From the IMG/VR virus record IMGVR_UViG_3300025682_000004: a stretch of 64,000 nt of DNA; one strand, written 5' to 3'. Below the pieces are notes generated by a model that saw nothing but the letters and a program-made list of their open reading frames with translations, was not told where the DNA came from and ran no database searches. The position numbers and the translations under genes were made by a program. Origin of the DNA: a virus (lineage: Duplodnaviria > Heunggongvirae > Uroviricota > Caudoviricetes). Shown piece after piece: positions 2,301 through 49,749 of this stretch; position 1 is the stretch's first letter, and the number at the start of each line of letters is the position of its first letter.

Positions 2301-4037
2301 TCATTCTTTTTTTATAACATCTTGATTTTTACGTAATTTTTCTAATAATGATTCTATTTCATCATCATTATTATCAAAATAAATTTTATTATCTACCTTT
2401 AAATTATTAGAATTCGATTCTAAATTTAAGTTATTTTCTATTTCTTTTTCATCCAAATTATTTACATCATCTTTATTTTCATTCGTTTCTTCCCTGTTTT
2501 TTAACAATAAATCATTAATTCTATCAGATTCTTCTTTTTCTTTTAGATTATTTGTAGTGCAAATTGCTTCATGTATTTTCATTGTTGATGATTTTTCTTC
2601 TAACATTTTACTAGCCTTTTCATCAAAAGTTTCTTTATCTTTTTCATTATAATGTTTTAAATTTTTATATGTTTTTGAATATTTATATCTACTATCTTCA
2701 ATTACAATTTGCATTGTGTCGTTATTAAAAATACAATCTTCAAATCTTTGACCATCTTGTGCAAATCTTGCTTTAATAATAAAAATATTTGCTAAATGCG
2801 CTTCTTTTTGTTCATCAGTTTTAGCGACACTCATAAAAAAATGTGATTTTTGAATTCTTTTTATATTACCACCTGATTGATGTGGTTCTATAAATTCTGC
2901 ACCAAAACCAGAACGATTACTTTGAATAGCAGACCAAGCAGGAATATCTAAATCACCAGCAAGTGATTCAAATCCCTTTACAATTATTAATTCTGCATCA
3001 TTTCTATCGTATGCTTTTTTGTGTGGTTCTAAACAATCAAGATAATCAAGAACCAATAAATCAAATTTAAAACCATATTTTTTTTCATAACCAATCATCC
3101 AATTTCGAATATCTAATATTGTTGTATTATCTTGACTAAATCTTTTAATAACTAACTTGCCCTTACCTTTTAATTGTTTTACTTTTTCATATACAACATT
3201 ACTAACTCTTTCGTTTTCATCTTCATCATCCAATTTACTCAATGCTGATTTAGCCCATATTGTATAATGTTTACGTTTTATTTGGTCTTTAGTATCTTCA
3301 AATATTATTTGTGCTACGTTTTTTTCATTTTCATATGCAGTGTTTGCAATAACAGTTAATAAGGTTGTTTTTCCAACACCCGATGGAGATAAAATTAAAC
3401 CAATTTCACCCCTACCCAAACCACCACCACTTAATGCATCAATTACACCAACACCAGTTGGTATTGTTTTTCTAAATTCTTTTCTTAATGCAATATCAAT
3501 TCCTTCAATAACTTCTTCAGAATCATCTTCAGAATCAATCAACGATATTGTTCTTATTTTTTCTTCAATTAAACCAACAACATATTTATTTTTAATATCA
3601 CCCGTTTTTACATTTTCATGAATATAATCTGATAATTTACGATATTCTTGTTGTTTAATAAAAATGTTTGTACTTTTTCTAATAACATCCCCATCATACA
3701 ACATTTGCTTATTAATAATCCTTTCATTCCATAATTCAAGACGTTTAATTATAGAAAACAACGATTCTTCTTCTATTGAATTATTTGGTGTTTTATATGT
3801 ATTTATTGCTTGATAAATGCTTTTATTCTGAAGATTAGGAACTTTTTCAAATTCTTTATAAAATTCTAAAATTATTATAAACAATCTTTTTAAAATTGGG
3901 TCATCAAAATATTCAATTTCTAAATTAAGAATTGTTTTTTCTGCAAATTCTGGTTCAACCAATAATTGCCACATTAATTTTTGTTGAAATTCATATCCCA
4001 AATATGCTGTAAATGTATTTTCTACAACACCATCCAT
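2301..4037 (-). CDS. DnaB-family replicative helicase (T4 gp41-like)
   Basis: RecA-like core: Walker A SPSGVGKTT, Walker B LLVLDYLD, and SAIQSNRSG resembling the DnaB H4 motif (QxNR). The N-terminal domain is divergent. Confidence 0.6.
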   Translation of the reverse strand: MDGVVENTFTAYLGYEFQQKLMWQLLVEPEFAEKTILNLEIEYFDDPILKRLFIIILEFYKEFEKVPNLQNKSIYQAINTYKTPNNSIEEESLFSIIKRLELWNERIINKQMLYDGDVIRKSTNIFIKQQEYRKLSDYIHENVKTGDIKNKYVVGLIEEKIRTISLIDSEDDSEEVIEGIDIALRKEFRKTIPTGVGVIDALSGGGLGRGEIGLILSPSGVGKTTLLTVIANTAYENEKNVAQIIFEDTKDQIKRKHYTIWAKSALSKLDDEDENERVSNVVYEKVKQLKGKGKLVIKRFSQDNTTILDIRNWMIGYEKKYGFKFDLLVLDYLDCLEPHKKAYDRNDAELIIVKGFESLAGDLDIPAWSAIQSNRSGFGAEFIEPHQSGGNIKRIQKSHFFMSVAKTDEQKEAHLANIFIIKARFAQDGQRFEDCIFNNDTMQIVIEDSRYKYSKTYKNLKHYNEKDKETFDEKASKMLEEKSSTMKIHEAICTTNNLKEKEESDRINDLLLKNREETNENKDDVNNLDEKEIENNLNLESNSNNLKVDNKIYFDNNDDEIESLLEKLRKNQDVIKKE

Positions 4038-4056
4038 TTTTTATATAAAATTATTG

Positions 4057-4596
4057 TTAATAAGAATATTGCATATTTATAATATCACACATTTTCATTT
4101 TTTCGAAAATCTGATTTGTAATATCAACAACACATTCAACAATATCAACAGACCATCGAACATCAGGATTAAATCTATCAACATAAAATAATCTTTCTAC
4201 AATTGGATTGTCATTAACATATAACCCAATTTTACATTCAACACCTTTTATGATTTTATCTTCAATATGTAAAATGATTGGTTTTGGTTGATATTTTAAT
4301 TCTTCTCTTTGTTTTTTAGGAAAAGAATTAATTATATGATTATTATAATTTAAAAAATCATAATGTGTTAAATTTTCTGAATTAATACTATCCTTACCTA
4401 CATAATATATATGACTATATTGTTGTTTGGATAATAGTTTTTGTAATCTTGTTATTATTTTTGGTAAAATATCTCTAATATCCACTGAATATCTAACATA
4501 CGGACTAAAAACATTTCCATCAAAAATTTTTTCACATAAAATTATATCACCCTGTGATAAAGAAAATTTAAAAATATTAACATCTTTTTCTTCCAT
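4057..4596 (-). CDS. hypothetical protein
   Basis: 179-aa ORF. Confidence 0.35.
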   Translation of the reverse strand: MEEKDVNIFKFSLSQGDIILCEKIFDGNVFSPYVRYSVDIRDILPKIITRLQKLLSKQQYSHIYYVGKDSINSENLTHYDFLNYNNHIINSFPKKQREELKYQPKPIILHIEDKIIKGVECKIGLYVNDNPIVERLFYVDRFNPDVRWSVDIVECVVDITNQIFEKMKMCDIINMQYSY

Positions 4597-4664
4597 TTTC
4601 GTATAATTTAAAAAGTTTTATTGTATAAAAATATATTATATTTTAATAATAAACAAAAAAAATA

Positions 4665-5708
4665 TTATTTTTTATAATATTCAGTTAATAATTTTTTTTC
4701 ATTCATAATTACAGTATAAAACGGTTCAACGTAATTAGGAAAAGTGCTACCATAAACACTTAAAAAATCATCTTCAATCATCATATTATACAAATTTTTA
4801 CTCCCCCTATTTTCTGGAGATAATGGTACTTCTAATTGTAATAATTCTTCCTTTGCTTTTTCATTAAGTATTGGATTTTTTAAATTAACTAATTTATAAT
4901 TTGTTTTTAATCTATTCACATTGTTCAATAAATTATCCAATGCCTTTATTGGTTTTTTATTTTCTTTTAATCTATTTTCATTAAATTCTTTTGCTTTAAT
5001 ACAAATTTCACGAACAGTCAATTTTTTAAATTTTAATTCTGGAAAATATTTCAATAAACTTTTTTCACCCAATCCATCAATACCTTTTATATTATCTGAA
5101 GCATCGCCACAAATTATTTTATAAACTAAAGCATTTGTATAATGATGACTAAAGTGCATAATATAATTAATTTTATTTATTGGTTGTTCTTTATTTGGAA
5201 ATAAAATTAAAATATTTAAATCTAATAATTGAAGAAAATCTTTGTCATTTGAATATAATAAAATTTCTTCTTTATCATGATATTCAATACAATATTTTGC
5301 AATTAAATCATCACCTTCTATTTCGTCAACTTCTATTTGTCTTAAAAATAATTCTTCTGCATATGCTTGTATTCTTTTTTTCTGTTTTAATATTGATTCT
5401 TCTTTTTCTTTTTCTTTTTTTATTTCAACATCACTCATTTCAATTTTACGATACCATTCTTTGTTTTTTCTATTCGATTTGTAATTACTATCAATTCTAT
5501 GTCTATATATTCCACTATTTTCACCATCCCAAACTAAAACAACTTTATTAATTTTATGTGTTTTTATTAATTTACGAACAGTTGTTAAAAATTGATATAA
5601 TCCACCAATATGTCCAAATTTCACGGTGTAAGTATCTCTTGCACCGTGAAATGAACGTTGTAATAAGTATGATGAATCAACCAATAATGTCCTAATCTTC
5701 ATCTTCAA
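4665..5708 (-). CDS. 5'-3' exonuclease / flap endonuclease (T4 RNase H / T5 D15-like)
   Basis: N-terminal PIN-like region LLVDSSYLLQRSFHG, DKDFLQLL, and the H3TH motif ICGDASDNIKGIDGLGEKS characteristic of FEN and Pol I 5'-nuclease families. Confidence 0.8.
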   Translation of the reverse strand: MKMKIRTLLVDSSYLLQRSFHGARDTYTVKFGHIGGLYQFLTTVRKLIKTHKINKVVLVWDGENSGIYRHRIDSNYKSNRKNKEWYRKIEMSDVEIKKEKEKEESILKQKKRIQAYAEELFLRQIEVDEIEGDDLIAKYCIEYHDKEEILLYSNDKDFLQLLDLNILILFPNKEQPINKINYIMHFSHHYTNALVYKIICGDASDNIKGIDGLGEKSLLKYFPELKFKKLTVREICIKAKEFNENRLKENKKPIKALDNLLNNVNRLKTNYKLVNLKNPILNEKAKEELLQLEVPLSPENRGSKNLYNMMIEDDFLSVYGSTFPNYVEPFYTVIMNEKKLLTEYYKK

Positions 5709-8276: not shown

Positions 8277-9692
8277 TTAAAAAAATCCATCATTTACTAT
8301 TTCAAACGATAATGGTTGTTTTATATCAAAATATTCGCCCGATTTTAACTTAATTTGAATATAATAAACTTGTGGTATTAACCACGATGTATCTAAATTA
8401 AAATAATATCCAAATTTGGTTCTATTTACACTAGTAAATGGTATTACATCAATTTCATATCCATCACTAATTTTTATATATACTCTATATTCAATATTTA
8501 ATGGAATAAAATTGTTTTGGTTTGTATACAATTCTTTAACCGATATTTTTATTTTCCTTATATCACCAGATTTTATTTGTTCAGATTCTTTAATTCCCCA
8601 AAAATTAAAATGATAATTTTCTAAATTTAGTTGTGATTCTTCATTAATTATAAAATATTTTTCTGGTGATATCAAATAAAATTTACTATAATAATTACTT
8701 TCAACTCCATTCATTGTTAAATTCCATTCATCTACAAATAAAACACTATCAGGATATTCATTTGAATTTATTTTATATTCAACAAAATAAATTCCATTAC
8801 CAACATTCGTAATTGAATCACCACTAATGGTTTCAATAAAATTATTATTATTATCATATATATTTACATGATTAACAATAATTTCATTATTATTTAAAAT
8901 ACTAATAGAATTTGTATATAAATATAATCTATTTTTTTTATCTAAATAAAAATAATTTCTATCATCTAATATGATATCATCATAAATTGTTTCAACATAC
9001 GGTTCATACCACGTGTTTGTTTTATTTGTATGAAAAGCAACTGCATGTCTAAAATCTGTTTCCAAAGATTCATATAAGTCTAAAAACTTAATCCCTAAAC
9101 CAAAAGAATCACCACTAAAAACAGTATTACCACTATATTCATTTTCAAATAATCTTTGGTTTACATAATCAGTAATATCAATTTCAATATTTTCATTACC
9201 CTTTTCAAATCTTTGATTTCCAATAATTTCAGTATTACCAGTTGAATAAACACCATCTACATTCCAAAATAAATTTGTTTTTCTATTAAACCAATTGGAT
9301 GCATGTTTTGATGATTTATCAGCAAATGTATCATCATATAATAAATCATAACCATTTCCTTCATCCCAATCTTCAGAAAGATTAAAAACTTCCAATTCAA
9401 AACTACTTGCTCTTTCAATCATTTCCGAATATGATTTTTTTCCAACATATTTTAAATCCCTACCAATTGTATTTGTCATGTGTAAAATATGTTTTTTAAT
9501 ATTGTTTTGAATAATAATACCCCTTTCTATTCTTTTTCTTAATAAAGAAAAATCAATATCAAAAATATATCTACTAACACAACCATCATAAGTACCATAT
9601 GATATTTCGGTAACAGGATTTTGAGAATTATTTGTTGTATTATTTGTTATTAAAGTATTTGACTTTTTAAAATAACTTCTAATTCTACTCAT
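8277..9692 (-). CDS. hypothetical protein, possibly virion-associated
   Basis: 471-aa ORF preceded by the TATTTATATTA promoter-like motif (9703-9717 on the opposite strand). Confidence 0.35.
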   Translation of the reverse strand: MSRIRSYFKKSNTLITNNTTNNSQNPVTEISYGTYDGCVSRYIFDIDFSLLRKRIERGIIIQNNIKKHILHMTNTIGRDLKYVGKKSYSEMIERASSFELEVFNLSEDWDEGNGYDLLYDDTFADKSSKHASNWFNRKTNLFWNVDGVYSTGNTEIIGNQRFEKGNENIEIDITDYVNQRLFENEYSGNTVFSGDSFGLGIKFLDLYESLETDFRHAVAFHTNKTNTWYEPYVETIYDDIILDDRNYFYLDKKNRLYLYTNSISILNNNEIIVNHVNIYDNNNNFIETISGDSITNVGNGIYFVEYKINSNEYPDSVLFVDEWNLTMNGVESNYYSKFYLISPEKYFIINEESQLNLENYHFNFWGIKESEQIKSGDIRKIKISVKELYTNQNNFIPLNIEYRVYIKISDGYEIDVIPFTSVNRTKFGYYFNLDTSWLIPQVYYIQIKLKSGEYFDIKQPLSFEIVNDGFF

Positions 9693-9792
9693 AATGATAA
9701 ATTTATTCTAATATAAATAGTAATATTTTCAACAACAACAAAAAAAGACTACAATAAGTAGTCCTTTTTCAAAAAAGAAATATTATTTAAAT

Positions 9793-11868
9793 TTATTTTT
9801 CTCTATATTTTTTCCATAATTCAAAAAATTCTTCTTTTTCATCATCCCTTAAACTATTAAAATCTTTCTTTTCATATTCCTGATATTTTTTTATTTCATC
9901 ATCATTATTATCAGAACTTTGACCACCCACAACCGATTTTGCATTATCAGAACCAACAATTTCTTCAGTTAAATCACCAACATTTATTGGCTTATAACCC
10001 AACAATTCATCTACCAATTCCTTTTCATTATCATATTCACTTGCTTCCTTACTTGCATTAAATTGTGCGCTTATTTCTGGGTCTTCTTTAACAGTATAAT
10101 ATTTAGGGTCTTCAGTTAAATGGTCTAATGCTATTTCCAATGCAATCATAGGGTCATTAGTATGTTCCATTTCAACCTTCATTCCCAATTTAATTTGTTC
10201 TGGGTCAAATTCCAATGGTGACTTATCATCACCAAGACCACCTTCAATTTGGTCACCGATTTCATCCCTTTTTTTTGCAAGATTTTCAATATCTAAATTA
10301 TTTTTTTCAGTTGTTTCAATTTCTTCTTCTGATTCAATAATAAAACCACCATCAGTTTCTGAAAACCTCATAATTCTTTTCATGTTAGTATCTTTCAATG
10401 AAAATAGATATATTCTAAATCTTGTATATGGTTTTTTTGTATTCATATCAAAAGGCATTATAAAAGGTTTACCTTCTCTTGCTAAAACACCTATTTGAAA
10501 TGTACCTTCTATTCCATTTACTTCAACAACATCACCAATATTAAGATTTTCATTATCTTCAGCATTCTTAATGACATCATCTTCAGATTCATTCATACTT
10601 CTTATATGTTCTTTAAATAATACAACGACTAAATCTCTTATCAAATTATGATATTTTTCTTTTGGTATTTTGAATTTATTAATACCATATTTATTAGTGA
10701 TTATATTATCTGCTCTTTTTATTAAAAACGTTTTAAATTCATCACTAGTTGAATTAAAATACTTCCATTCAATATAATCAACATTTGTGTTTTTTAATTT
10801 ATTTTCACTTAAATAATTATCAGCCCATGATGGATATACACGTGTTTTATTTTTAGCCATTCTCATTCCTTTTTTTCTTTTTTCGGGTTCTTTATTTAAA
10901 TTAGAAATTCTATTTACTTCTCTTTCAACTTCAGATTTTGACGGAAAATAATTTGGATTTTTTTGTGTTTTATTTTTCATCATTAAATTATCAAATGCTT
11001 TATTATATAATTCATCATCTTCTGATGAACTTTCCATATTTTCATAATCTAAATTAGATATGTTTTCATCATCATAATCATTTTCTAAATCTTTATACTT
11101 CATTGCATCCTTATCACTATATTTATTTACTAAATTGGAATCATCATCAAAATCAATATCATTATTTAAATTATTTCCAAAATTATCATCATAATCTAAT
11201 CCATCATCCAAATCTTCATCATCTAAATCATCATAATTAAAATCATCATCAAAATCATCATTATTTTCAGTAACATATGAATTTAATTCGGGTGAGTTTA
11301 CTCTAAGATTCGGATTTGTTGGTTTTTCATCAACATAGGATTTATGATTTTGTAATTCTTCTGTACTTCTTTTATATGGAATATTATCAATTAATTTAAT
11401 AACTTCATCCAAATCATCAACCTTTGATTTCATATCATCTTCAAAATTAATATAATTAGAAATAAAATCAATAATTTCTGTATTATAATCATCATTAAAT
11501 TCTTTTAGTGTGTTTTCATCAATGTTTAATGAATCACCATCATTGCCCATAAAAAAATTAATTAATTTTGAATCTTCAATTTCAATTACACCATCAGTTT
11601 CCCTTTCAATAAATTCACTTTTGAAAACAAAATTAATTTCTCTATTATTTTCACCTAAACAATCAATTGTTGTATAACATTCATTTGATTCAATATCATT
11701 TGTTATTCTTTTAATTTCAATTTCATCATTAAGTAGTTGATTGAATACTATTTTTAAATTTTCTATTGGATTATTTATTATATTTTCCTCATTTAAAGTA
11801 ATTTTATTTACTCTTTGAAGCATTTCAAATAATCTTTCTTTACTACCAATTGGACTAAAAACTCTCAT
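9793..11868 (-). CDS. hypothetical highly acidic protein with D/E/N/Y low-complexity tracts
   Basis: 691-aa ORF. The central region carries runs such as DDFDDDFNYDDLDDEDLDDGLDYDDNF. Confidence 0.4.
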   Translation of the reverse strand: MRVFSPIGSKERLFEMLQRVNKITLNEENIINNPIENLKIVFNQLLNDEIEIKRITNDIESNECYTTIDCLGENNREINFVFKSEFIERETDGVIEIEDSKLINFFMGNDGDSLNIDENTLKEFNDDYNTEIIDFISNYINFEDDMKSKVDDLDEVIKLIDNIPYKRSTEELQNHKSYVDEKPTNPNLRVNSPELNSYVTENNDDFDDDFNYDDLDDEDLDDGLDYDDNFGNNLNNDIDFDDDSNLVNKYSDKDAMKYKDLENDYDDENISNLDYENMESSSEDDELYNKAFDNLMMKNKTQKNPNYFPSKSEVEREVNRISNLNKEPEKRKKGMRMAKNKTRVYPSWADNYLSENKLKNTNVDYIEWKYFNSTSDEFKTFLIKRADNIITNKYGINKFKIPKEKYHNLIRDLVVVLFKEHIRSMNESEDDVIKNAEDNENLNIGDVVEVNGIEGTFQIGVLAREGKPFIMPFDMNTKKPYTRFRIYLFSLKDTNMKRIMRFSETDGGFIIESEEEIETTEKNNLDIENLAKKRDEIGDQIEGGLGDDKSPLEFDPEQIKLGMKVEMEHTNDPMIALEIALDHLTEDPKYYTVKEDPEISAQFNASKEASEYDNEKELVDELLGYKPINVGDLTEEIVGSDNAKSVVGGQSSDNNDDEIKKYQEYEKKDFNSLRDDEKEEFFELWKKYREK

Positions 11869-15889: not shown

Positions 15890-16641
15890 ATATTACTTTT
15901 ATTTATAACACCAACACCTTTTTGGGAAACAACCCAAGAAGCACATTTATTTGCAAAATTAATTGCTTTTGGAATATTTCCAAATTCTAAATAATTTGCC
16001 ACAAAACCTGCAAAAAAAGTATCACCAGCACCCGCTAAATTAATAATAGCATATTGTTGTTCAACATGATATAAAACATCATTATGTCTAGCACCTTCAT
16101 CCCCCAAGGTAATAATTAATTCACCCTTAAAATCATCAATTAAATACTTTGAATTATTATTAAACTCATTTTCATTAACTTTTATGAATTCTATACCATC
16201 TGCCCATTTTCCAAACTTTTTTTTGCTATCTAAAAAAACTAATTTGTGTTTATTTGTTATATTTGTTATAGTATTTTCAGTAAGAAAACCTTTATCATAA
16301 TCTGAAATTACAATAGCATCATAATCATTAAAATTAATATTAACTAAATATTCTTCTGCTTTTTCAACAATCCTATCATAACCATCAACCCTAAGTAACA
16401 TTTGATTTGTTTTTTTATCAACAAATCTTAATTTATGTGGTTTTACCATAGTATTTGTAATTATATCACACGAAATACCTAAACCTTCTAAATTATTTTT
16501 AACATTACTTGCCATACCACTAGATTGAACACCATACAAACTCTTAAAAATAGGCACTGGTGCTTCAGGACTAATTCTTTCACAAACACCATATTGAAAT
16601 TCATCAATACAACTATCACCAATAACTAATACTTTATCCAT
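15886..16641 (-). CDS. hldA: D-beta-D-heptose 7-phosphate kinase-like (HldE domain I / HldA; PfkB family)
   Basis: N-terminus KVLVIGDSCIDEFQYGVCERISPEAPVPIF closely parallels RfaE domain I (VLVVGDVMLDRYWYG...RISPEAPVPVV). C-terminal PfkB motif LAGAGDTFFAGF. Confidence 0.75.
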   Translation of the reverse strand: MDKVLVIGDSCIDEFQYGVCERISPEAPVPIFKSLYGVQSSGMASNVKNNLEGLGISCDIITNTMVKPHKLRFVDKKTNQMLLRVDGYDRIVEKAEEYLVNINFNDYDAIVISDYDKGFLTENTITNITNKHKLVFLDSKKKFGKWADGIEFIKVNENEFNNNSKYLIDDFKGELIITLGDEGARHNDVLYHVEQQYAIINLAGAGDTFFAGFVANYLEFGNIPKAINFANKCASWVVSQKGVGVINKSNI

Positions 16642-16671
16642 AATATTATTTTTTTACATAATAAATATAGT

Positions 16672-16911
16672 TTAACAAACCCAAATATATGTTGGTGTTG
16701 CATTAAATCTTCTTGTGGGTGTTTTATATCCCAAAGGTTTTAAAAAATCATCAATTTCTTTAAATTCTTCACTTGTTGCTGCTTCACAAATAATAACAGG
16801 TAATTTGTTTTTTATTAAATTTATACCACCATCAAGTATTTTTCTTTCAGCACCTTCAGTATCTATTTTAATCAACACAACATTTTCATTTAATGAAATT
16901 TCATCATCCAA
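16672..16911 (-). pseudogene. FkbM-family methyltransferase, C-terminal fragment (gene split by IS insertion)
   Basis: LIKIDTEGAERKIL matches the FkbM LKIDVEGAE block. There is no native start codon; the ORF caller used TTG. The upstream in-frame sequence runs straight into the IS end. Confidence 0.55.
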
Positions 16912-16929
16912 TGTATTTGAAATTGTGAA

Positions 16930-18120
16930 CTACCCATTTGCTAAAGACAAATGGGCTTCGGACTTCGCAGATAGTTGAGTATTACTACTTCTTACACCAT
17001 CTCCATCCGTGTTATCGAGCGTCCCACCCGATATTATTTTCAATCCTTCTTTCAGAATGACCTTTGCTGCATTTAAATCACGGTCTAATTTATGTCCATT
17101 TTTGCAAGTCCATTCACGAACCGAAAGATTTAAATCTTGATTTATCCATCCACACACATTACAAGTTTTGCTTGAGGGGTAAAAGCGATTGATTTTAACA
17201 ACTTGTTTATCGTTCCAATCTGCTTTGTACTCCAAGAATCTCACAAATGTACCCCAACTTGCATCTGCAATGTGTTTTGATAATTTTCTATTGCTCATCA
17301 TTCCCTTTACATTAAGGTCTTCCAAAGCAATTATGTCATAATCAGAAACAAGTTGATGCGATACCTTATGCAATACATCTTGTCTTGTGTTGGATATTTT
17401 CTCGTGTATTTTGGCAACTTTTCGTTTTTGTCTTTCAAACGAATTGCTACCTTTTTGCTTACGAGAAAGATGTTTTTGTGCTTTCGCTAAATCTCTTTCA
17501 TATTTCTTGGTATATCTGTTATTCTTGAATTTGATGCCGTCAGAAGTAATGGCAAAATCTTTCAAACCTAAATCCACACCACATACAGCACCAGTTTTTT
17601 CTTTTGGTTGATATTGTTCTTCGGTTAAAATTGAAACATAGTATCTTCCAGTCGGTGTTTTAGTAAAGGTCATTTTGCCAACATCGCCCCTTATTTCACG
17701 GTGAACAATACATTTAATCCCTTCTTTGAATTTAGGTACGTGAATTTTACTACCTTCTAATTTTGTGTGTTGTGGTACGGTGAAACTATTCCTTCTTTTC
17801 TTAGACTTAAATCTTGGAAACTTGGCATTGCCACGAAAGAAGTTAAGGAATGCAGTATCCAAAGACCTTAAAGCAAATTGCAGGGTTTGGCTGTTTACTT
17901 CTTTAAGCCAAGCAGTTTCCTCTTGCTTTTTTAATTCAGTCAAAGTTTTTGCTTGAACATAATAGTTGTCAGACTTCTTGTTTGCCTGATACTGTTCTTT
18001 ACGCTCATTCAGAAAGTAATTGTACACGAACCTAACACACCCGAAGTGTTTATCCAGCAACACTTTTTGGTCTTGTGTCGGTCTTAATTCAAAGCGATAT
18101 GTCCTATATATTGTTTTCAC
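16930..18120 (-). CDS. tnpB: TnpB (OrfB; RuvC-like, RNA-guided nuclease family)
   Basis: RuvC-I GVDLGLKDFA, RuvC-II IALEDLNVKGM, Zn finger CNVCG...CKNGH, RuvC-III DRDLNAAKVI. The C-terminus overlaps the right-end hairpin, where omega-RNA is normally derived. Confidence 0.85.
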   Translation of the reverse strand: MKTIYRTYRFELRPTQDQKVLLDKHFGCVRFVYNYFLNERKEQYQANKKSDNYYVQAKTLTELKKQEETAWLKEVNSQTLQFALRSLDTAFLNFFRGNAKFPRFKSKKRRNSFTVPQHTKLEGSKIHVPKFKEGIKCIVHREIRGDVGKMTFTKTPTGRYYVSILTEEQYQPKEKTGAVCGVDLGLKDFAITSDGIKFKNNRYTKKYERDLAKAQKHLSRKQKGSNSFERQKRKVAKIHEKISNTRQDVLHKVSHQLVSDYDIIALEDLNVKGMMSNRKLSKHIADASWGTFVRFLEYKADWNDKQVVKINRFYPSSKTCNVCGWINQDLNLSVREWTCKNGHKLDRDLNAAKVILKEGLKIISGGTLDNTDGDGVRSSNTQLSAKSEAHLSLANG

Positions 18121-18210
18121 GTTTACAAATATACTATATTTATACTAAATACGCAAGTTTTGTAAAAGTTCCGTCTTTGGGTAAAAACTTTCACAAAAAC
18201 TTGCTTCGTT

Positions 18211-18624
18211 ATGTCTAAAAAATCACAGTACATTTCTACAAATCGTTCAAAGCATTATCTCAAGTGCCATCTTATTTTTGTCTGCAAGTACCGTAAAAAG
18301 TTGCTTGTTGGTCAGTTAAAAGATGATATGCGTTCTATTCTTTTAAACATTACTTCTAATTCAGATTTTGAAATTGAAGTCTTTGAATCTGATTTAGACC
18401 ACATTCACTTTCTTATTCGCTACATTCCTAGTTTATCCATTACTTCAATAGTTCGTAAGTTAAAACAAGAATCTGCCTATCACATTTGGCGTTCATCTCA
18501 CAGGTCATTCTTATTTAAACATTTTTGGAAAGAACACACTTTTTGGTCAGATGGTTATTTCGTTTGCTCAATTGGTGAGGCTTCTCCTGATACCATTCGT
18601 GAGTATATTCTCAATCAGGGCTAG
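18211..18624 (+). CDS. tnpA: TnpA, IS200/IS605 Y1 (HUH) transposase
   Basis: HUH motif HIHFLI, C-terminal Tyr in TIREYIL. The 137-aa size is typical. Confidence 0.85.
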   Translation: MSKKSQYISTNRSKHYLKCHLIFVCKYRKKLLVGQLKDDMRSILLNITSNSDFEIEVFESDLDHIHFLIRYIPSLSITSIVRKLKQESAYHIWRSSHRSFLFKHFWKEHTFWSDGYFVCSIGEASPDTIREYILNQG

Positions 18625-18642
18625 TCGCTTACATCCCACAAA

Positions 18643-19104
18643 CTAAAGATTTGTGGGTTTTACGCTCCGTTTTATAAATAATAAATTGTCATTGTTTTTA
18701 TTTTTTTCAATTACTTTCGATATTCCAGTATTTTGATATGTTTCATATTTAATTAAATTTAATTCATCTTTTTTGTTCCATAAAGCAATATTTCTTAAAA
18801 CATATTGTTTTTTTGAATTTTTTGATAAATTCTCATTTAAAATGTTAAAACAAAAATTTTCTGGTTCAAATATATATAATTTTGTTGAATTACAATGATT
18901 GGCAAAAAATAATGAATGATTTCCTATATTACCACCAACATCAACATAAACACCATTTAAATTTAAATTACTAATATATTCTAATAATTCTTGTTCATAC
19001 CAAGGTATTTGTTTAAAAATATGTTCATTTTCAACTCCTTTAAATGAATATTGAAAATTATCATATTTAAAATTTTTTATAACAACATTATTTTTCATAT
19101 TCAT
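18643..19104 (-). pseudogene. FkbM-family methyltransferase, N-terminal fragment (gene split by IS insertion)
   Basis: YVDVGGNIGNHSLFFA is the FkbM SAM-binding block (DVGANIG). The last about 8 codons (RSVKPTNL-stop) are read from the IS end hairpin. Confidence 0.55.
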
Positions 19105-19258
19105 TCTTTTTATAATGAAATTATTTTATGAATTTTTCTAACTTCAGGATTCATTAATGATTCATGGTCACCATGATATGCAAAACTTTTAATAGGTGTA
19201 AATATTGGTATTTTTAAATCACGCAATCTTATTGACAATTGTCTACCAACACCTGAAC

Positions 19259-19993
19259 TCATTTTATCATTTTTTTTTTTATTGGAAATATTGTAAATTT
19301 TAATTTTTCTAATGTTTTTCTATTTGTAAAAAAACCACAATCAGTAAAAAATGATATATAAATATCATCTGAAATTTTATATGATTTTTTTCCTGTCCAC
19401 GATTCTAACCTACCATCATTAATAATATTAAAAACATAATAATACTCTGACAATAATGATGCGTATTTAAATATTCTACTAAAATTAATATTTAAAAAAT
19501 CATTTGGAATGAAACAATACACATCATAATTCGATTTTTCACACATTTTAAACATCTCATCAAATGTTTTCCAATATTGATGTTTACCTCTATGCTCACT
19601 ATTCACAATAAAACGATTATCATCCAAAACATAATCTGACCTATCATCAAATATATAATAATCAATATTATTATATTCTTTTATTTCATTTAATATCATA
19701 GTCAACATGTCAATTCTCATATAATTTGAGATTAACACCAATGTTTTTAATTCTGTATTATGTTTTTTGTTATTAAAAATATAAGCATAATCATATGTAT
19801 TACTAATATTGTTAACATCAACATCATTGACTATTAAATTATCATTAATGTTTTTTTGGTTAATATATATTTTATTGTCATTAATATTATTTTCAATAAA
19901 AATATTATTAGAATTAATAATATTAATCCTTTTTTTTATTATTCTCTTAATATTGTTTTTATTTTTTCTCATTATTATCACAATTATAATCAA
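19259..19993 (-). CDS. hypothetical protein, possibly a nucleotide-sugar transferase
   Basis: 244-aa ORF with an I/N-rich N-terminus and DD-containing segments. No secure motif. Confidence 0.3.
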   Translation of the reverse strand: MIIIVIIMRKNKNNIKRIIKKRINIINSNNIFIENNINDNKIYINQKNINDNLIVNDVDVNNISNTYDYAYIFNNKKHNTELKTLVLISNYMRIDMLTMILNEIKEYNNIDYYIFDDRSDYVLDDNRFIVNSEHRGKHQYWKTFDEMFKMCEKSNYDVYCFIPNDFLNINFSRIFKYASLLSEYYYVFNIINDGRLESWTGKKSYKISDDIYISFFTDCGFFTNRKTLEKLKFTIFPIKKKMIK

Positions 19994-20579
19994 TCTCGGT
20001 GTAGTTAATCTTACTTTTATTATTAAAATAATTTGGAAATTTTAATTTTTGTAAATTAAAATTTAATTCTGGAAACACATCAATATGCGACACAATTACA
20101 TTTAAACACTTTTTTAATTGATAACCACGTTTAAGCATTTCTTGATTTATCATAAAATCCCAATAAACAGATTCATCACAAACCCAATAATTAATATCAT
20201 CAATTACTTTTCTTCTCTGTATATTAACACAAGTTACCGTATTAACATCACCAAAAAAAACACCATTATATTCTTGAATATTTATTGGTTGAATTATATT
20301 ACCAACACCCGTTCTTTTTAACATTAATTGACCAATATTTCGAAAGGCATCCATTATATTCACAATTTTATCCAAAAAATTTTCTGTTATTGGTGGACGA
20401 TCATTATCCCATTGCATAGTATAAACACAATCATCATCCAAATTTTCATAACCCAATTTAGTCCCACCAAAATCACCTGAATTATAATCTAAAAAAATTG
20501 GCTTTATTTTATAATATCCATCAACTACAATAGATTTTAACCATTGTGTTGTACCATCAGTACTATTATTATCAATCAC
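19959..20579 (-). CDS. glycosyltransferase-like protein (GT-A fold fragment/short form)
   Basis: N-terminal IDNNSTDGT resembles the GT2 DDGSTD block. Its start overlaps the stop of the upstream gene by ATGA. Confidence 0.35.
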   Translation of the reverse strand: MIDNNSTDGTTQWLKSIVVDGYYKIKPIFLDYNSGDFGGTKLGYENLDDDCVYTMQWDNDRPPITENFLDKIVNIMDAFRNIGQLMLKRTGVGNIIQPINIQEYNGVFFGDVNTVTCVNIQRRKVIDDINYWVCDESVYWDFMINQEMLKRGYQLKKCLNVIVSHIDVFPELNFNLQKLKFPNYFNNKSKINYTEIDYNCDNNEKK

Positions 20580-21295
20580 ACCTTTAAAAATACGTTATTA
20601 ATAAAATTAGTTTGCACACTATCATCGTTTTTGTGTTTATCAAAAACATAATTATCTTCAGGATATTGTTTTTTGTGTTTTAAATACCCTTCAACATGTG
20701 ACAAAACATACCGTTTTATCCCATTTTTTTTCGCAAAATAATTAACATATAAATCATCCATTGATACATTACCACAGTAATCATACCATTTATCTAAATC
20801 ATTATAAAAATTACGTTTAAATAAACTACCACAATTACTAACAATATCGACTTCTTGATCCAATAAAACAGTACCTAACGCCCTATAAACAATTCTATCT
20901 CTATAATAACTATTAATAATACCTTTCAATAATACAACACCATGTAATGAAACATGTGCATTATATTTCTCACAACCATTAATTAATTTACCTAAATAAT
21001 CGTGTGGATATATTAAATCATCATCAGCCAACGCAATATAATAATTATTACCATGAGCAATATATTTTAATTTTTCATTACTACCCTTTTCATTATTACC
21101 CCTATATAATTTAATTCGCATATCATCGCCCAATTCTTTATTAATATATTCCCATTGCTCATCAGTCCAATTATTACACGTAATTGTTGCTGTACCAAAT
21201 TCTGGTTGACTTCTTAGCGAATTAATTGCAACAACGGCATGACCTTGTCGCCATAATGATGCAATGTAAATATCTACTTTACTATTCATAATCAT
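20576..21295 (-). CDS. putative glycosyltransferase
   Basis: ALADDD (DxD-like) and a position between other GT genes. Weak evidence. Confidence 0.35.
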   Translation of the reverse strand: MIMNSKVDIYIASLWRQGHAVVAINSLRSQPEFGTATITCNNWTDEQWEYINKELGDDMRIKLYRGNNEKGSNEKLKYIAHGNNYYIALADDDLIYPHDYLGKLINGCEKYNAHVSLHGVVLLKGIINSYYRDRIVYRALGTVLLDQEVDIVSNCGSLFKRNFYNDLDKWYDYCGNVSMDDLYVNYFAKKNGIKRYVLSHVEGYLKHKKQYPEDNYVFDKHKNDDSVQTNFINNVFLKV

Positions 21296-44545: not shown

Positions 44546-46003
44546 ATGGAAGCACACCAACATAAAATTAGAATAAAAAAATCAAAAGAAGAAATATTAG
44601 ATTTTAATTATAAAAACATTTCTTTAGATAATACAGAAATTAAATTAATTGATAAAAACACTGCAAGTAAAATTATAATAGAATATGAATGGTTAAAAAC
44701 AATGCCATATATTGTTAAATATTGTTTTGGTATATATTTTAATACAGAAAATGGTCAAAAACTAGGTGGTGTTTTAGTTTTTAGTAATGATTATACAGAA
44801 AATACTGGTGTTTGGGATAAATATGGATTTACAAATAAAATTTTATTATTAAGCAGGGGTGTTTGTTTATGGTGGACACCAAAAAATACAGCATCTTTTT
44901 TTATTTCTAGGGTTTGTAAATGGTTAAAAAATAATACAAAATATAGAATAATAACAGCAACTGTTGACCCAGCAGCAGGTGAAATCGGAACAATTTATCA
45001 ATCATTAAATTGGTTATATGTTGGTGTTATGTCTGGTAATTATTCCAATAATAAAGAAACAAAAAGATTTTCAGTATTAATTGATGGTAAATTAAGATAT
45101 AGTAGATGGGTTAGAAATAAATTGGGTACGATGAAAAAAAATGTTATTTTAAAACACTATCCCAATGCAATATTTTTACCACAATATAGAAAACATAGAT
45201 ATTTTTATTTTATAGACACACCAAGAAATAATAAAAAACATAAAACATCTATAAATCATTTAATATTACCATATCCTAAAAGAAATGATGAAATTATTGG
45301 CGTTATTTATAAAATAAAAAACAAAATAAACAACAAATTATATATTGGACAAACAATTCGTTCAATAAATGAAAAAATATTAGAATATAAAAATGGTTTG
45401 GGTAATGATTATATTAATAATGCATTCAATAAGTATGGTTGGGATAATTTTGAATTTACAATAATTGATACGGCAAAAACAATTCAAGAACTAAACAATA
45501 AAGAAATTAAATATATTAGTGATTATAAATCAAACCAAAAAGAATTTGGTTATAATATTGAAGGTGGTGGTAAAAATATAATACCAACAAAAGAAACTTT
45601 AGATAAAATGTCTATTTCTCATTTAGGTATTAAACAATCTAAAGAATGGATTAATAAAAGAATTTCAAAAGCAGGTAGTAATGATGCAAAAAAATACGGT
45701 AGAAAAAAAACAAAGCAAGATAAATTAATTTTAAGTAAAAATTCTTCTAAATATTGGTTAGGTAAAAACCATACAGAAGAAACTAAACAAAAAATTAGTA
45801 AAACAAAAAAACAAATTGGATTGTCTGAAAAACAAAAAGAAATAATTTGCAAAAAGGTATTTAAAGTTAATTTAAAAACTAATGAAATTATTGAATTTGA
45901 ATCAACAAAAAAGGCGAGTGTTTTTGAAAATGTTAATCAATCCACAATATCAAGATGGTGTAAAAATGAAAAAAGAGTAAATGGTTATTTATGGAAAAAT
46001 TAA
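44546..46003 (+). CDS. GIY-YIG homing-endonuclease-like protein with unusual N-terminal extra domain and C-terminal NUMOD-type DNA-binding repeats
   Basis: GIY-YIG core at about residues 250-330: GVIYKIKNKINNKLYIGQT...R...E...N. C-terminal repeats SISHLGIKQSKEWINK and WLGKNHTEETKQKISK resemble NUMOD3. The first about 240 aa form an unrecognised domain. Confidence 0.55.
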   Translation: MEAHQHKIRIKKSKEEILDFNYKNISLDNTEIKLIDKNTASKIIIEYEWLKTMPYIVKYCFGIYFNTENGQKLGGVLVFSNDYTENTGVWDKYGFTNKILLLSRGVCLWWTPKNTASFFISRVCKWLKNNTKYRIITATVDPAAGEIGTIYQSLNWLYVGVMSGNYSNNKETKRFSVLIDGKLRYSRWVRNKLGTMKKNVILKHYPNAIFLPQYRKHRYFYFIDTPRNNKKHKTSINHLILPYPKRNDEIIGVIYKIKNKINNKLYIGQTIRSINEKILEYKNGLGNDYINNAFNKYGWDNFEFTIIDTAKTIQELNNKEIKYISDYKSNQKEFGYNIEGGGKNIIPTKETLDKMSISHLGIKQSKEWINKRISKAGSNDAKKYGRKKTKQDKLILSKNSSKYWLGKNHTEETKQKISKTKKQIGLSEKQKEIICKKVFKVNLKTNEIIEFESTKKASVFENVNQSTISRWCKNEKRVNGYLWKN

Positions 46004-46578: not shown

Positions 46579-49500
46579 TTAAGAGATATCTGTCCAATTT
46601 CTATCAAAGATTAATTCATTTTTTGCTCTTGTATATGCAACATATTCTAAATTTTTTTCTTGTAAAAATTCCCAATTTTTTGTTGTTTTCATTGGTAATA
46701 AATCTGGTCTTATTATAAAGACCCTATTTGCTTCAAGACCCTTTATTTTATGTATTGTACTTAAGCAAATTCCTTGAATTTCATCACTAAAAATTAAACC
46801 AATTTTATTTTTTAAATCAACAATACTATTTGATAATTTTGCTAAAAAAAGTAATGTTGTTACTTTATCTTCTAATGTAACATAACCACTATGTTCATTT
46901 GGGTTTAAAATACCTTCCTTTTTTAATTCTTTTCTATATTTAATTAATTCTCTATCCCAAAAAAGAATTAAATTGTCAATAGATTTAATATCACCAATTA
47001 ATTCAATTAACTGAACACCAATATCAGAACCTTTCACAATTGCTTTTTTTTCTTGTTCTAAAAATTCAAAAAATAATTTAATTAATGGTATTGTTGTTCT
47101 ACATAAAACAAAATCACCACTTTCTGCTTCTTTTAAAACATTACCATCCCTTACAATACCATCAGGTGCATTGGGTAGTGCTTTTATATCAGGTACAATT
47201 TCTTGTGCTTTTTTTATTACATTTTTTGAACATCTGAATGACGTTGATAATGGTAGTGTTTTAGTATTTGGGAATTTACTAAACCATTCAAACGCTTTTT
47301 CATCTGCTGCATTAAATCCATATATACAATTATGTGTTAATATATTATCAGCAACATATGTTTCGTATTTATCAATTTCTAAAGAATAAACTAAACCAGA
47401 ATATTTTTCATATTTTAATTCATATATTTTTTGAATGTTGTGCAAATTTGCATTTAAACTGCAAATTTGCATTAAATCTGGAATAATATTAATTGCATAT
47501 ATTTCTAAAAAATTTTGATTATAATCCATATTCCAATTAGAATTCCATATCGGGTAGTTTGAATTTTTATTAAAATCATTAAATATTTTATCTTTATTTG
47601 CTAAATAATAATTAGCATCTTTATATGCATAATACAAAGAATAGTACGATTTTAAAATCCAAATTTTATTAACATCACTTTTATTCTTAAAAATTTTAAA
47701 AAAATCAATCTCATTTCTTATTGTGAATATACGTATGTGTTGAGTTTCATCCATCAATTCAAACAAACACAATACAAATTGTAATTGTTTTGTTTTTTTT
47801 ATTTTAACCAAACATTTATGTTCTGGTGTATATTTAGATTCACATCCTCTTGAAATTATTTTTATTAAATTTCCATTATAATACCTACAACCAATATTGT
47901 TAATTTTACTTTTAATAAAGGAATTACTTTTTCTATCGTAAGAAATAATTAAATCACCAACATTTAAATTTTCAATATCCTTTTCTGTATTATCATTCAT
48001 TAATATTTTTGTTCCTTTAGGTTGACATTGATAATAATCACCAACAGATATTAATCTACCTATATATTTACCAGTAGTTTTATCTTTTTTTATTAATTTT
48101 TCTACAATTTTTATTTGACAACGATTTAAATCTTGAACTTCATCAATAAAAATATAATCTTGAGGAAACATCCAAATACTACTATCTATTGCTGGTAAAT
48201 ATATCATATCAATAAAATCATAATTTTTTCTATCAATTGTTGATTCTTCTAATATTTTTAATATTCTTTTAATATCTTTATTTTCTTTAATTGGTATATT
48301 ATATTTTTCAGCAATATTTGGAATAAATTCTGAATTTGTTGTTAATGTTAATCTACATAAATTAACCATTTTTTTTATATTATTTAAATATAAAGAAATA
48401 TCATCGTTATCATCAAATTCATCGTTTAATTTCCAATTTTTTGATTTTGATTGTATTATTTTATCAATTTTAAATTCATCGAATTGTATTTTATCACCAT
48501 ATTTTCTTTTAATTGCAGACGTACCTAAACCATAAGTTGTATAACATCTAACATATTCGGGTAATTTTGTTTTTAATTCTTCTTGTATGTGTTTATTGAA
48601 CGCTAAAAACATAATAGATTTATCTTTAGGTAATAATTTTACTGCATCAACTATGGTTGAAGTATTGTGTGTGATTGTAAAATCACCCAATAAAAATCTA
48701 CCATTACCATTTAAAGTAAATCCAAAATATAAACCTTGTGATATAATATTTTCTTTTATTTTAAAAGAAAATAAATTATTGTAATTTGTTTTTTGTTTTC
48801 TTTTATATACTAAAGGTAATATGCTAGTATTTCCATTAATGTCAATTTTCCAAAAAATGTTATTTCGAAAAGAAAATATCTTTTTCTCTTTATATATAAA
48901 ACCTAAACTTTCACATAAAAATTTCAAATTAACTATTTTCCTTTTTGAAATTATTGTTAGTTTGGATGTCCTGTTTTTTTTATTATAATAAACATCAAAA
49001 ATACCCGCCAAGATTTTTTTTCTATTTTCAATAGAATTTATTAGATATTTGTCTGGTATTGATAAATGAATATTCTTTTTGTTTTTATCAATATTAAAAA
49101 TAATACACTTTTGAAAATCATCGGAATAAAAACCCTTTTCATATTTTTTATTTAAACAAACACTTGTTTTATTTAAAACAAAAAAAGAATTATCTTTTAA
49201 CTCCAACAATTTTTCTATTATTTTTCTTGTTAACCTAAAATCGACAAATAAAAATTGTTTTATATTATTTTTTAAATTATATCCTAACCATAATCCTAAT
49301 AAATATGGATTTATTTCTGTTTTATTTTCTTGAAATTCAACAATGGATTTTTTTAATTTAATATTTTTTAAATAACCATTCCATTTTTTTGAATATTTGA
49401 GTTCATTTAGTGGTGTATCTAACAAAATTTTAGAAATTTCATTGTAATGTGTAATTACATGAACATCATTACAAACCCAAGAATATCCTATTTCATTTTT

Positions 49501-49749
49501 TATTTTATATAGTTTACCATATCCAATATTTTTATTCAATACTTTACGAGGCGATGAATCATCACCCATTAAAAAATCACCAATTTTTATATCTTGAACC
49601 CTTTTTATTGTTCCATCATACATCAATACTGGTGTATCATATCCAAGACATTTACCTGTACCAGCATATGCTTTTATTAAAATATTTTCAGGTCTTTTTT
49701 TTGTAAATAAAAATATTCTTTCTTGTTCTTTTGTTGGTTTATTAATCAT
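46579..49749 (-). CDS. SF1 DNA helicase (Dda/UvrD-like) precursor containing two inteins
   Basis: Exteins join to give Walker A AYAGTGK|TSTIV and motif III VGDYYQ|CIYGFNAA (compare UvrD VGDDDQSIYGWRGA). The C-terminus has LSTIHKIKGLEAN and YVAYTRAKN (motifs V/VI). The predicted mature size is about 494 aa. Confidence 0.7.
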   Translation of the reverse strand: MINKPTKEQERIFLFTKKRPENILIKAYAGTGKCLGYDTPVLMYDGTIKRVQDIKIGDFLMGDDSSPRKVLNKNIGYGKLYKIKNEIGYSWVCNDVHVITHYNEISKILLDTPLNELKYSKKWNGYLKNIKLKKSIVEFQENKTEINPYLLGLWLGYNLKNNIKQFLFVDFRLTRKIIEKLLELKDNSFFVLNKTSVCLNKKYEKGFYSDDFQKCIIFNIDKNKKNIHLSIPDKYLINSIENRKKILAGIFDVYYNKKNRTSKLTIISKRKIVNLKFLCESLGFIYKEKKIFSFRNNIFWKIDINGNTSILPLVYKRKQKTNYNNLFSFKIKENIISQGLYFGFTLNGNGRFLLGDFTITHNTSTIVDAVKLLPKDKSIMFLAFNKHIQEELKTKLPEYVRCYTTYGLGTSAIKRKYGDKIQFDEFKIDKIIQSKSKNWKLNDEFDDNDDISLYLNNIKKMVNLCRLTLTTNSEFIPNIAEKYNIPIKENKDIKRILKILEESTIDRKNYDFIDMIYLPAIDSSIWMFPQDYIFIDEVQDLNRCQIKIVEKLIKKDKTTGKYIGRLISVGDYYQCQPKGTKILMNDNTEKDIENLNVGDLIISYDRKSNSFIKSKINNIGCRYYNGNLIKIISRGCESKYTPEHKCLVKIKKTKQLQFVLCLFELMDETQHIRIFTIRNEIDFFKIFKNKSDVNKIWILKSYYSLYYAYKDANYYLANKDKIFNDFNKNSNYPIWNSNWNMDYNQNFLEIYAINIIPDLMQICSLNANLHNIQKIYELKYEKYSGLVYSLEIDKYETYVADNILTHNCIYGFNAADEKAFEWFSKFPNTKTLPLSTSFRCSKNVIKKAQEIVPDIKALPNAPDGIVRDGNVLKEAESGDFVLCRTTIPLIKLFFEFLEQEKKAIVKGSDIGVQLIELIGDIKSIDNLILFWDRELIKYRKELKKEGILNPNEHSGYVTLEDKVTTLLFLAKLSNSIVDLKNKIGLIFSDEIQGICLSTIHKIKGLEANRVFIIRPDLLPMKTTKNWEFLQEKNLEYVAYTRAKNELIFDRNWTDIS
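47329..48027 (-). mobile_element. intein 2 (233 aa) inserted in helicase motif III
   Basis: Starts with Cys after VGDYYQ and ends ...ILTHN followed by Cys. Contains a Cys/His cluster (CRYY...GCESKYTPEHKC). Its endonuclease type is unclear. Confidence 0.55.
48664..49650 (-). mobile_element. intein 1 (329 aa) with LAGLIDADG-type homing endonuclease motifs, inserted in Walker A
   Basis: Starts with Cys after GTGK and ends ...ITHN followed by Thr. Internal blocks LLGLWLGYNL and ILAGIFDVYY resemble the two LAGLIDADG motifs. Confidence 0.65.

Follow-up and report, generated by a model that had tools for sequence, protein, structure and literature searches.

An IS200/IS605 element within an FkbM methyltransferase gene

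The window analysed here is a 64,000-nucleotide stretch of the virus record IMGVR_UViG_3300025682_000004 (Caudoviricetes), in which a complete insertion sequence (IS) of the IS200/IS605 family, 1749 bp in length (16925-18673, minus strand), separates the two halves of a gene for an FkbM methyltransferase. On the minus strand the element consists, in order, of the left end (LE), tnpA (antisense), tnpB, the region of the TnpB guide RNA (ωRNA) and the right end (RE). The tnpB gene (16930-18120, minus strand, GTG start) encodes a protein of 396 residues and tnpA (18211-18624, plus strand) a Y1 HUH transposase of 137 residues, with a 90-bp spacer between the divergent genes (18121-18210) that is the presumed location of the promoters. 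A consensus-based promoter scan gave nothing convincing (10 sites against 14.2 expected from shuffles), and no terminators were found. The same divergent layout occurs in IS605 and IS606 of Helicobacter pylori, whereas tnpA and tnpB of ISDra2 are co-directional.

TnpA matches the Pfam family Y1_Tnp (E = 5.6e-32) and the NCBIfam model for the IS200/IS605 transposase (transpos_IS200, 119 bits against a cutoff of 55). Its HUH motif is formed by H64-I65-H66, and Y132 aligns with the tyrosine on the C-terminal helix of ISDra2 TnpA. The protein can be aligned with the TnpA structures of ISDra2 and IS608 (2XM3, 2A6M), the IS608 enzyme being a distant match (E about 1e-12). TnpB contains the Pfam domains HTH_OrfB_IS605, OrfB_IS605 and Cas12f1-like_TNB, scores 359.8 bits against a cutoff of 100 with the NCBIfam model guided_TnpB (RNA-guided endonuclease TnpB family), and aligns over residues 9-393 with ISDra2 TnpB (8H1J, 8BF8; E about 2e-76). 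These matches bear out the initial annotation of the DNA, made from the letters alone, which had described an insert of about 1.75 kb with a Y1 HUH transposase and a full-length TnpB. That annotation had also called the RuvC site and the zinc finger of TnpB intact, and here only the first part stands as it was put. The RuvC residues D183, E267 and D348 align with D191, E278 and D361 of ISDra2 TnpB, where D191 and E278 are essential for cleavage (PMC8612924). At the zinc site C320, C323 and C339 are present, whereas the fourth cysteine of ISDra2 has been lost with a one-residue deletion that leaves C-K-N-G-H, and H343 may serve as the fourth zinc ligand. The CKNGH form is common to most close TnpB relatives, and some relatives have CxxC. 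Judged from these alignments, the catalytic motifs are intact in both TnpA and TnpB.

The N-terminal part of the methyltransferase gene (18674-19104, minus strand) holds the motif DVGGNIGN and ends ...NDNLLFI, and the C-terminal part (16672-16924, minus strand) reads ISNTLDDEISL...IKIDTEGAE.... As open reading frames (ORFs) the two appear as a fragment of 153 residues (18643-19104, minus strand), which continues for 9 codons into the left end of the element as far as a TAG in the hairpin loop at 18643, and one of 79 residues (16672-16911, minus strand), which matches the C-terminal part of Methyltransf_21/FkbM (PF05050). The N-terminal fragment by itself has no Pfam match. Excision of the element in silico restores a continuous FkbM ORF exactly, and the rejoined protein spans positions 1-172 of the 173 in the PF05050 profile (E = 2.6e-14). 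It is 99% identical to an intact protein of 225 residues (P0121), confirming that the fragments are halves of one FkbM as had been proposed, and shares 57-64% identity with many other full-length FkbM proteins. Across the insertion point P0121 reads ...NNDNLLFIISNTLDD... (...LLFI|ISNTLDD...).

An uninterrupted allele is present in a near-identical phage contig, L081, the source of P0121 (FkbM at 9183-9860), which joins the position equivalent to 18674 straight to that equivalent to 16924 and whose flanks are 99.98% identical to those of the window over 10.2 kb. The empty site reads TTTAT|AATTTCAAAT, with ...GACAATTTATTATTTAT followed directly by AATTTCAAATACATTGG..., and the empty joint in full is TTATTTAT|AATTTCAAAT. 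Relative to this allele the insertion is precise, lying 3' of TTTAT with no host bases duplicated or lost. Three further contigs (L083, L092 and L094) likewise encode an intact FkbM, and the empty-site alleles that the initial annotation had suggested looking for among related phages thus exist. The insertion inactivates the FkbM gene of what, from its neighbours, is a glycan locus of the phage.

Ends and target of the element

To define the ends of the element, 80 genomic loci encoding TnpB relatives were fetched. At those loci that reach the element ends, homology to more than 30 related elements begins near window position 18678 and halts at 16925. The right end is unambiguous, all copies finishing ...GGGTAGTTCAC while the following bases vary, and the exact termini are therefore placed at 18673 for LE (AAAACGG...) and at 16925 for RE (...GTTCAC). 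Directly 5' of the left end lies TTTAT (18674-18678, minus strand), which is found in this position at 6/6 independent sites (five full copies and a derivative in contig L068, described below) and also in the aligned family relatives. A 1755-bp element that included TTTAT as its own sequence was considered and ruled out: P0121 and L081 retain the two codons (F, I) derived from it, so that TTTAT is host-gene sequence and the target, the transposon-adjacent motif (TAM) of the element. A target of 5 nt replaces the tetranucleotide that had been anticipated. The last five bases of the element, TTCAC (16925-16929, minus strand), form the transposon-encoded motif (TEM), and the combination of TAM TTTAT and TEM TTCAC is the pair published for ISGst2 (TnpB2), both of which were tested experimentally there (PMC10055086).

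Both ends carry a subterminal hairpin on the minus strand with an 8-bp stem and the same TCTTTAG loop, CCCACAAA-TCTTTAG-TTTGTGGG at the left (18635-18657) and CCCATTTG-TCTTTAG-CAAATGGG at the right (16933-16955). Already singled out in the initial annotation for their identical loops, they are the sole matches to the pattern in the 64 kb (0 in 100 shuffles). Substitutions in the left-hand stem among relatives preserve pairing (e.g. CCCACAGG/CCTGTGGG), and compensatory changes are likewise seen in the right-hand stem. The position of the hairpins inside the termini, on the same strand at both ends and with no terminal inverted repeats, is that of the IS200/IS605 family. By analogy with IS608 and ISGst2, AAAA (18658-18661, minus strand) is the presumed DNA guide of the left end, and GAAG (16956-16959, minus strand) is presumed to play this part at the right end. 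The positions of TAM, TEM and the two tetranucleotides are invariant among the collected relatives. In IS608 the guides AAAG and GAAT stand in the same relation to TTAC and TCAA as AAAA and GAAG do here to TTAT and TCAC.

The TnpB stop codon is in frame with the C-terminal FkbM fragment, as had been remarked before, and since the length of the element (1749 bp) is 3 x 583 the N-terminal fragment is in frame as well. This arrangement is a 1-in-3 coincidence from which no consequence is seen. The TCTTTAG loops (18643-18649 and 16941-16947) each contain a TAG, and termination of the N-terminal FkbM fragment at the left-hand one looks incidental; TnpB itself stops at a different TAG (16930-16932), located where the hairpin of the right end has its 3' foot.

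A conserved ωRNA-like structure and its putative guide

The predicted ωRNA scaffold (16925-17111, minus strand), which takes up roughly the final 135-190 nt of the element, overlaps the 3' end of tnpB and the right end. In a joint folding (RNAalifold) of the aligned last 226 nt of 22 family members, 20 of the 37 predicted pairs show compensatory changes. The covarying helices are formed by 17030-17016, by 17008-17005 with 16963-16960, by 17001-16999 with 16972-16970, by 16991-16978 and by 16956-16932, so that the supported structure spans 17058 to 16932 and finishes in the right-end hairpin. When the structure is held fixed 94.5% of cells pair, compared with 27-49% when the 3' partners are slid by 1-3 columns, and the observed covariation values were reached by 0/500 shuffles. 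The window sequence alone (16925-17150) also folds with z = -4.0. The first RNAalifold helix (17133-17136 with 16928-16931) was discounted, as compensatory changes are absent from it and it falls outside the portion that short derivatives of the element retain. These non-autonomous derivatives keep exactly the ωRNA part, from IS position 1563 or 1504 through to the end. A search of 16400-19400 against Rfam at E <= 1 gave no match, and the region is thus not covered by any curated ωRNA family. Covariation in the right-end hairpin itself could equally reflect recognition of the DNA hairpin by TnpA; the helices upstream of it are better explained by RNA because they fall within the poorly conserved C-terminal tail of TnpB. 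From this comparative evidence the tnpB 3' end and right end encode a conserved, covarying ωRNA-like structure.

In ISDra2 and ISGst2 the guide is read from the 16-20 nt that lie 3' of the right end (Karvelis 2021, PMC8612924; PMC10055086). By this rule the DNA templating the putative guide is FkbM coding sequence, AATTTCAAATACATTGGATG (16905-16924, minus strand), in agreement with the initial annotation, and the empty allele of L081, in which TTTAT is followed by exactly AATTTCAAATACATTGGATG, is a perfect TAM and guide target. The sole similar site within the window is the occupied one, preceded by TTCAC instead of TTTAT, which fits the published idea that the difference between TEM and TAM protects occupied copies.

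Copies of the element at other sites

Exact-protein look-ups for TnpB and TnpA retrieved metagenome contigs from several samples, in most of which the 1749-bp sequence is 100% identical to that of the window, with 99.4-99.9% identity in L083/L092, L090 and L088. The samples behind the occupied and empty contigs are ERZ795049, ERZ795052, the ERZ272574xx set, SRR27686863, and JGI 3300010347 and 3300025689. Five insertion sites can be distinguished, each with TTTAT on the left and with unrelated right flanks. Site A is the FkbM gene (the window, L082, L090 and L099), and site B a gene for a 194-residue S-adenosylmethionine (SAM) methyltransferase belonging to an alternative cassette of the same glycan locus (L083/L092, L086/L095, L091, L094 and L098). 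Site C directly follows a hairpin located between small ORFs (L084, L093 and L097), site D lies inside a different tnpB gene whose product is 38-52% identical (L085, L087 and L096), and site E on a short contig (L088). At site D the host tnpB is split into a 272-residue N-terminal part and a 141-residue part with the TNB domain (3950-4768 and 6443-6868 in L096; also in L085 and L087). L081 is empty at both A and B, with 0-4 single-nucleotide polymorphisms (SNPs) over 5-6 kb relative to the site-B carriers. Identical junctions recur in independent assemblies from several samples. The presence of 99.4-100% identical copies at four further TTTAT-flanked sites indicates that the element was mobile very recently.

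The GC content is 35.2% within the element compared with 24.4% across the rest of the window, and a GC profile gives 33-37% along the insert and 19-27% on both sides. The initial annotation had noticed this contrast and read it as a sign of recent foreign acquisition. The contrast is real, but a GC content of about 35% is usual for this IS family, tnpB in relatives having 30-37% regardless of the GC content of the flanks (27-51%). The case for a recent arrival accordingly rests on the empty sites and identical copies, not on GC by itself.

Derivatives and relatives

A derivative of the same IS, also flanked by TTTAT, occurs at 2110-3251 of L068 (BPGB01000011.1), an AT-rich contig binned as 'Candidatus Woesearchaeota' KatS3mg002. 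Two parts of the element remain, namely the first 127 bp, with the left end, and the last 246 bp, with the TnpB C-terminus, the ωRNA region and the right end, and each matches the window copy at 100% identity. The segment between them has been replaced by a 235-residue GIY-YIG/NUMOD homing-endonuclease-like ORF, which is thus carried inside transposon ends that retain the guide-RNA region. The exact 35-nt right end of the family is found in 36 IMG/VR viral contig stretches, comprising full elements and short non-autonomous derivatives. One type of short derivative (about 275 bp) has left-end positions 1-89 fused directly to 1563-1749, that is to the ωRNA region and right end, and a second (about 230 bp) consists of the extreme ends only. 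Both types are found at different sites in IMG/VR viral contigs (L108, L112, L121, L130 and L133; L102 and L120).

TnpBs 77-89% identical to that of the window are encoded by Bacteroidota isolates (Algoriphagus, Sphingobacterium), by the chromosome of a gammaproteobacterial metagenome-assembled genome (MAG), and by Patescibacteria/Saccharibacteria, Methanobacterium and Pacearchaeota MAGs (L001-L033). Some of these MAG contigs may be mis-binned phage DNA.

The phage and its glycan locus

A Gp23-type (T4-type) major capsid protein, a DnaB-like helicase and an intein-bearing UvrD-type helicase identify the window as phage DNA. Among deposited phages the best matches to the capsid protein share only ~32% identity with it, from which it follows that the phage is uncultured and remote from all named ones; a blastn comparison of the region with deposited phages returned distant IS matches only and no relative of the window phage. 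The neighbours of the insert form a run of glycosyltransferase, epimerase, sugar kinase and cupin genes, the glycan locus referred to above.

Within this locus a cassette has been swapped between the window (~19200-20600) and L081 (7690-9170), the DNA on either side being 97-100% identical. The window carries a 244-residue ORF and a 206-residue glycosyltransferase family 2 (GT2)-like ORF in this position, and L081 the 194-residue SAM methyltransferase and a 301-residue ORF. In BLAST alignments with L081 the divergence seemed to jump exactly at the insertion point (99.98% identity on the right, 82.6% on the left), which was considered as a sign of co-conversion. This candidate was dropped, as a column-by-column alignment places the boundary at ~19200, upstream of FkbM, where it marks the swap of two neighbouring genes unrelated to the IS.

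Two other genes of the window carry domains of interest. In the UvrD-type helicase ORF (46579-49749, minus strand; 1056 residues) a stretch near the N-terminus matches Hom_end_hint and residues 583-807 match Intein_splicing, both models being of the Hint/intein type. An ORF of 485 residues that follows the major capsid gene directly on its downstream side (44546-46003, plus strand) combines a Mom-family domain (31-245) with a GIY-YIG nuclease domain (252-331).

Discussion

We conclude, with a probability of roughly 0.88, that the window contains an autonomous, recently active IS200/IS605 element inserted in the FkbM gene of an uncultured phage of ~24% GC with a T4-type (Gp23) capsid. Among the known systems close to it, ISGst2 from Geobacillus stearothermophilus (Meers et al. 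2023, PMC10055086) shares the TAM TTTAT, the TEM TTCAC, subterminal hairpins and an ωRNA at the 3' end of tnpB and the right end. ISGst2 resides in a bacterial chromosome and its TnpA is encoded elsewhere in the genome, whereas the present element is carried by a phage and has its own divergent tnpA. ISDra2 of Deinococcus radiodurans (8H1J, 8BF8, 8EXA) is alike in its full-length TnpB with the RuvC D/E/D residues, in the TnpA family and in taking its guide from the flank 3' of the right end, and differs in its TAM (TTGAT) and in a CCCC zinc site where the present TnpB has CCC plus His. Like IS605, IS606 and IS608 of Helicobacter pylori, the element would transpose by the Y1 peel-and-paste route, and it lies 3' of a short target that is not duplicated, although the target of IS608 is TTAC and its TnpA only distantly related.

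On the model of IS608, ISDra2 and ISGst2, TnpA would cut out the strand with the hairpins while the phage DNA is replicating, release it as a single-stranded circle with a junction reading ...GGGTAGTTCAC|AAAACGGAGCG, and paste it 3' of another TTTAT, the donor joint being left without a scar. TnpB, directed by an ωRNA that takes its 3' guide from transcription of the adjoining FkbM sequence, would then cut the donor joint, or any genome copy with TTTAT followed by AATTTCAAATACATTG, which is the empty allele, and recombination with an occupied copy would restore the element. Occupied copies would themselves be protected because TTCAC, not TTTAT, precedes the guide match. The many phage genome copies in a cell would supply both single-stranded DNA and repair templates. 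TnpB of ISGst2 was shown to cut the donor joint and to increase retention of the transposon (PMC10055086). The present element would probably be hard to lose from a multi-copy phage and could convert the empty alleles of co-infecting relatives. Homing into uninterrupted alleles is a reasonable inference from the published work on TnpB (PMC8612924, PMC10055086).

Several points weigh against this account, in whole or in part. The fourth zinc ligand of TnpB differs from that of ISDra2, and HpyTnpB of IS608 was inactive in a published assay, showing that intact motifs are no guarantee of activity. The contigs with sites C, D and E are phage-like and AT-rich (24-29% GC in the flanks) and have no overlap with the window. 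The copies in L090 and L088 differ from that of the window by 6 and 10 substitutions, nearly all synonymous and clustered in tnpB codons 179-203, save for one change in L090 at codon 251 that is shared with L083; these patches may result from recombination or from metagenome co-assembly with related IS variants. The cutting guided by TnpB and the re-copying into empty alleles are inferred from homologues, and the population data give no sign of homing. The same IS site was sought in different genetic backgrounds, and at site A the flanks of all carriers are 100% identical, while the site-B carriers and the empty contig are near-identical. No contig with the cassette type of the window (type 1) and an empty site A was found, all ten of this type carrying the IS at site A or breaking 25 nt into its left end. 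With identical flanks the site-A carriers look clonal, and the population data therefore neither support nor exclude homing.

Under a different explanation the insertion would be kept because it is useful, knock-out of the methyltransferase altering the glycan made in infection and scarless excision by TnpA providing a reversible on/off switch. The same IS does occupy both FkbM (site A) and the gene for the 194-residue SAM methyltransferase (site B), two different methyltransferase genes within a single locus, and the neighbouring genes form a cassette swapped between lineages. In a near-clonal population in which the DNA flanking FkbM has only 0-4 SNPs per 5-6 kb, FkbM itself is affected by the substitution F27I, by three alleles at codon 94 (S/N/I), by the nonsense mutation L159* (in L091) and by the IS insertion. 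Simple tolerance would give the same pattern, as insertions survive only in dispensable accessory genes. Moreover TTTAT occurs ~15 times per kb (both strands), so that the supply of targets does not single out methyltransferase genes, other insertions lie outside the glycan locus (sites C, D and E), and the expected action of TnpB against loss of the element speaks against easy reversal. We regard such a switch as unlikely. The case also picks out this phage group's glycan methyltransferases as dispensable genes that vary to an unusual degree.

Decayed and tnpB-only IS200/IS605 copies are common in phages, the Campylobacter phages CP220 and CPt10 having mostly tnpB-only elements, and the present one might by that token be an old immobile passenger or a domesticated TnpB that is a transposon no longer. 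Both genes and both ends are intact, the catalytic residues are kept, unlike those of domesticated TldR-type proteins, and 99.4-100% identical copies at five sites together with empty alleles in near-isogenic genomes already contradict this idea, which is left with very little probability. Least probable of all is that metagenome mis-assembly joined a bacterial IS to phage DNA, for although assemblies do break inside the IS (L138 and L139 stop 25 nt into the left end) and some copies have clustered variant patches, independent assemblies of different samples contain the same pair of junctions, and these fall exactly at TTTAT| and |right flank, splitting an ORF that is whole in L081, as chance chimeras would not.

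The autonomous, recently active element that we favour belongs to a category that is not itself new, with TnpB homologues in 619/50,697 deposited phage records and IS200/IS605 elements described in T4-like phages in 2010. The virulent T4-like Campylobacter phages CP220 and CPt10 carry ISCaje1-4, likewise IS200/IS605 elements in AT-rich T4-like lytic phages, which lie at different places in the two 96%-identical genomes, with their activity left open (PMC2853527). The ISCaje elements are mostly tnpB-only, and their description is not known to include an empty-site allele or an analysis of TAM or ωRNA, whereas the present element has exact copies at several sites and is documented with occupied as well as empty alleles.

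A more far-reaching proposal, which we put forward only tentatively, is that in phages this IS family acts as an RNA-programmed homing element, TnpB and its ωRNA cutting the empty FkbM or other methyltransferase allele during co-infection and recombination inserting a copy of the IS, so that it would amount to a natural gene drive from virus to virus. Its nearest counterpart in experiments is the TnpB gene drive of IS elements shown for multicopy plasmids, where inheritance is biased because IS-free copies are cut (Mears et al., bioRxiv 10.1101/2025.02.20.638934); there too a TnpB-bearing IS resides in a multicopy mobile replicon, and phages would be a further setting for such a drive. The expected outcome would also resemble that of the free-standing homing endonuclease genes of T4-like phages (Seg/Mob type), where a co-infecting empty allele is cut and the element copied in by recombination. 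Unlike these, the present element would read its target through an RNA guide and the TAM rather than through a protein, its guide would be reset with each insertion, and it can also transpose. If the proposal is true, it would fit the occurrence of full copies and short ωRNA-bearing derivatives in the 36 IMG/VR viral contig stretches, and carriage by phages would help to explain the 77-89% identical TnpBs in genomes and MAGs of Bacteroidota, of a gammaproteobacterium, and of Patescibacteria and Methanobacterium.

The value of the locus lies in its being a well-resolved natural case, with occupied and empty alleles in near-isogenic phages and a sequence from which TAM, TEM, guide and target can all be read. 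As such it is a ready test case for the biasing of inheritance by TnpB in viruses, as has been reported for chromosomes and plasmids.

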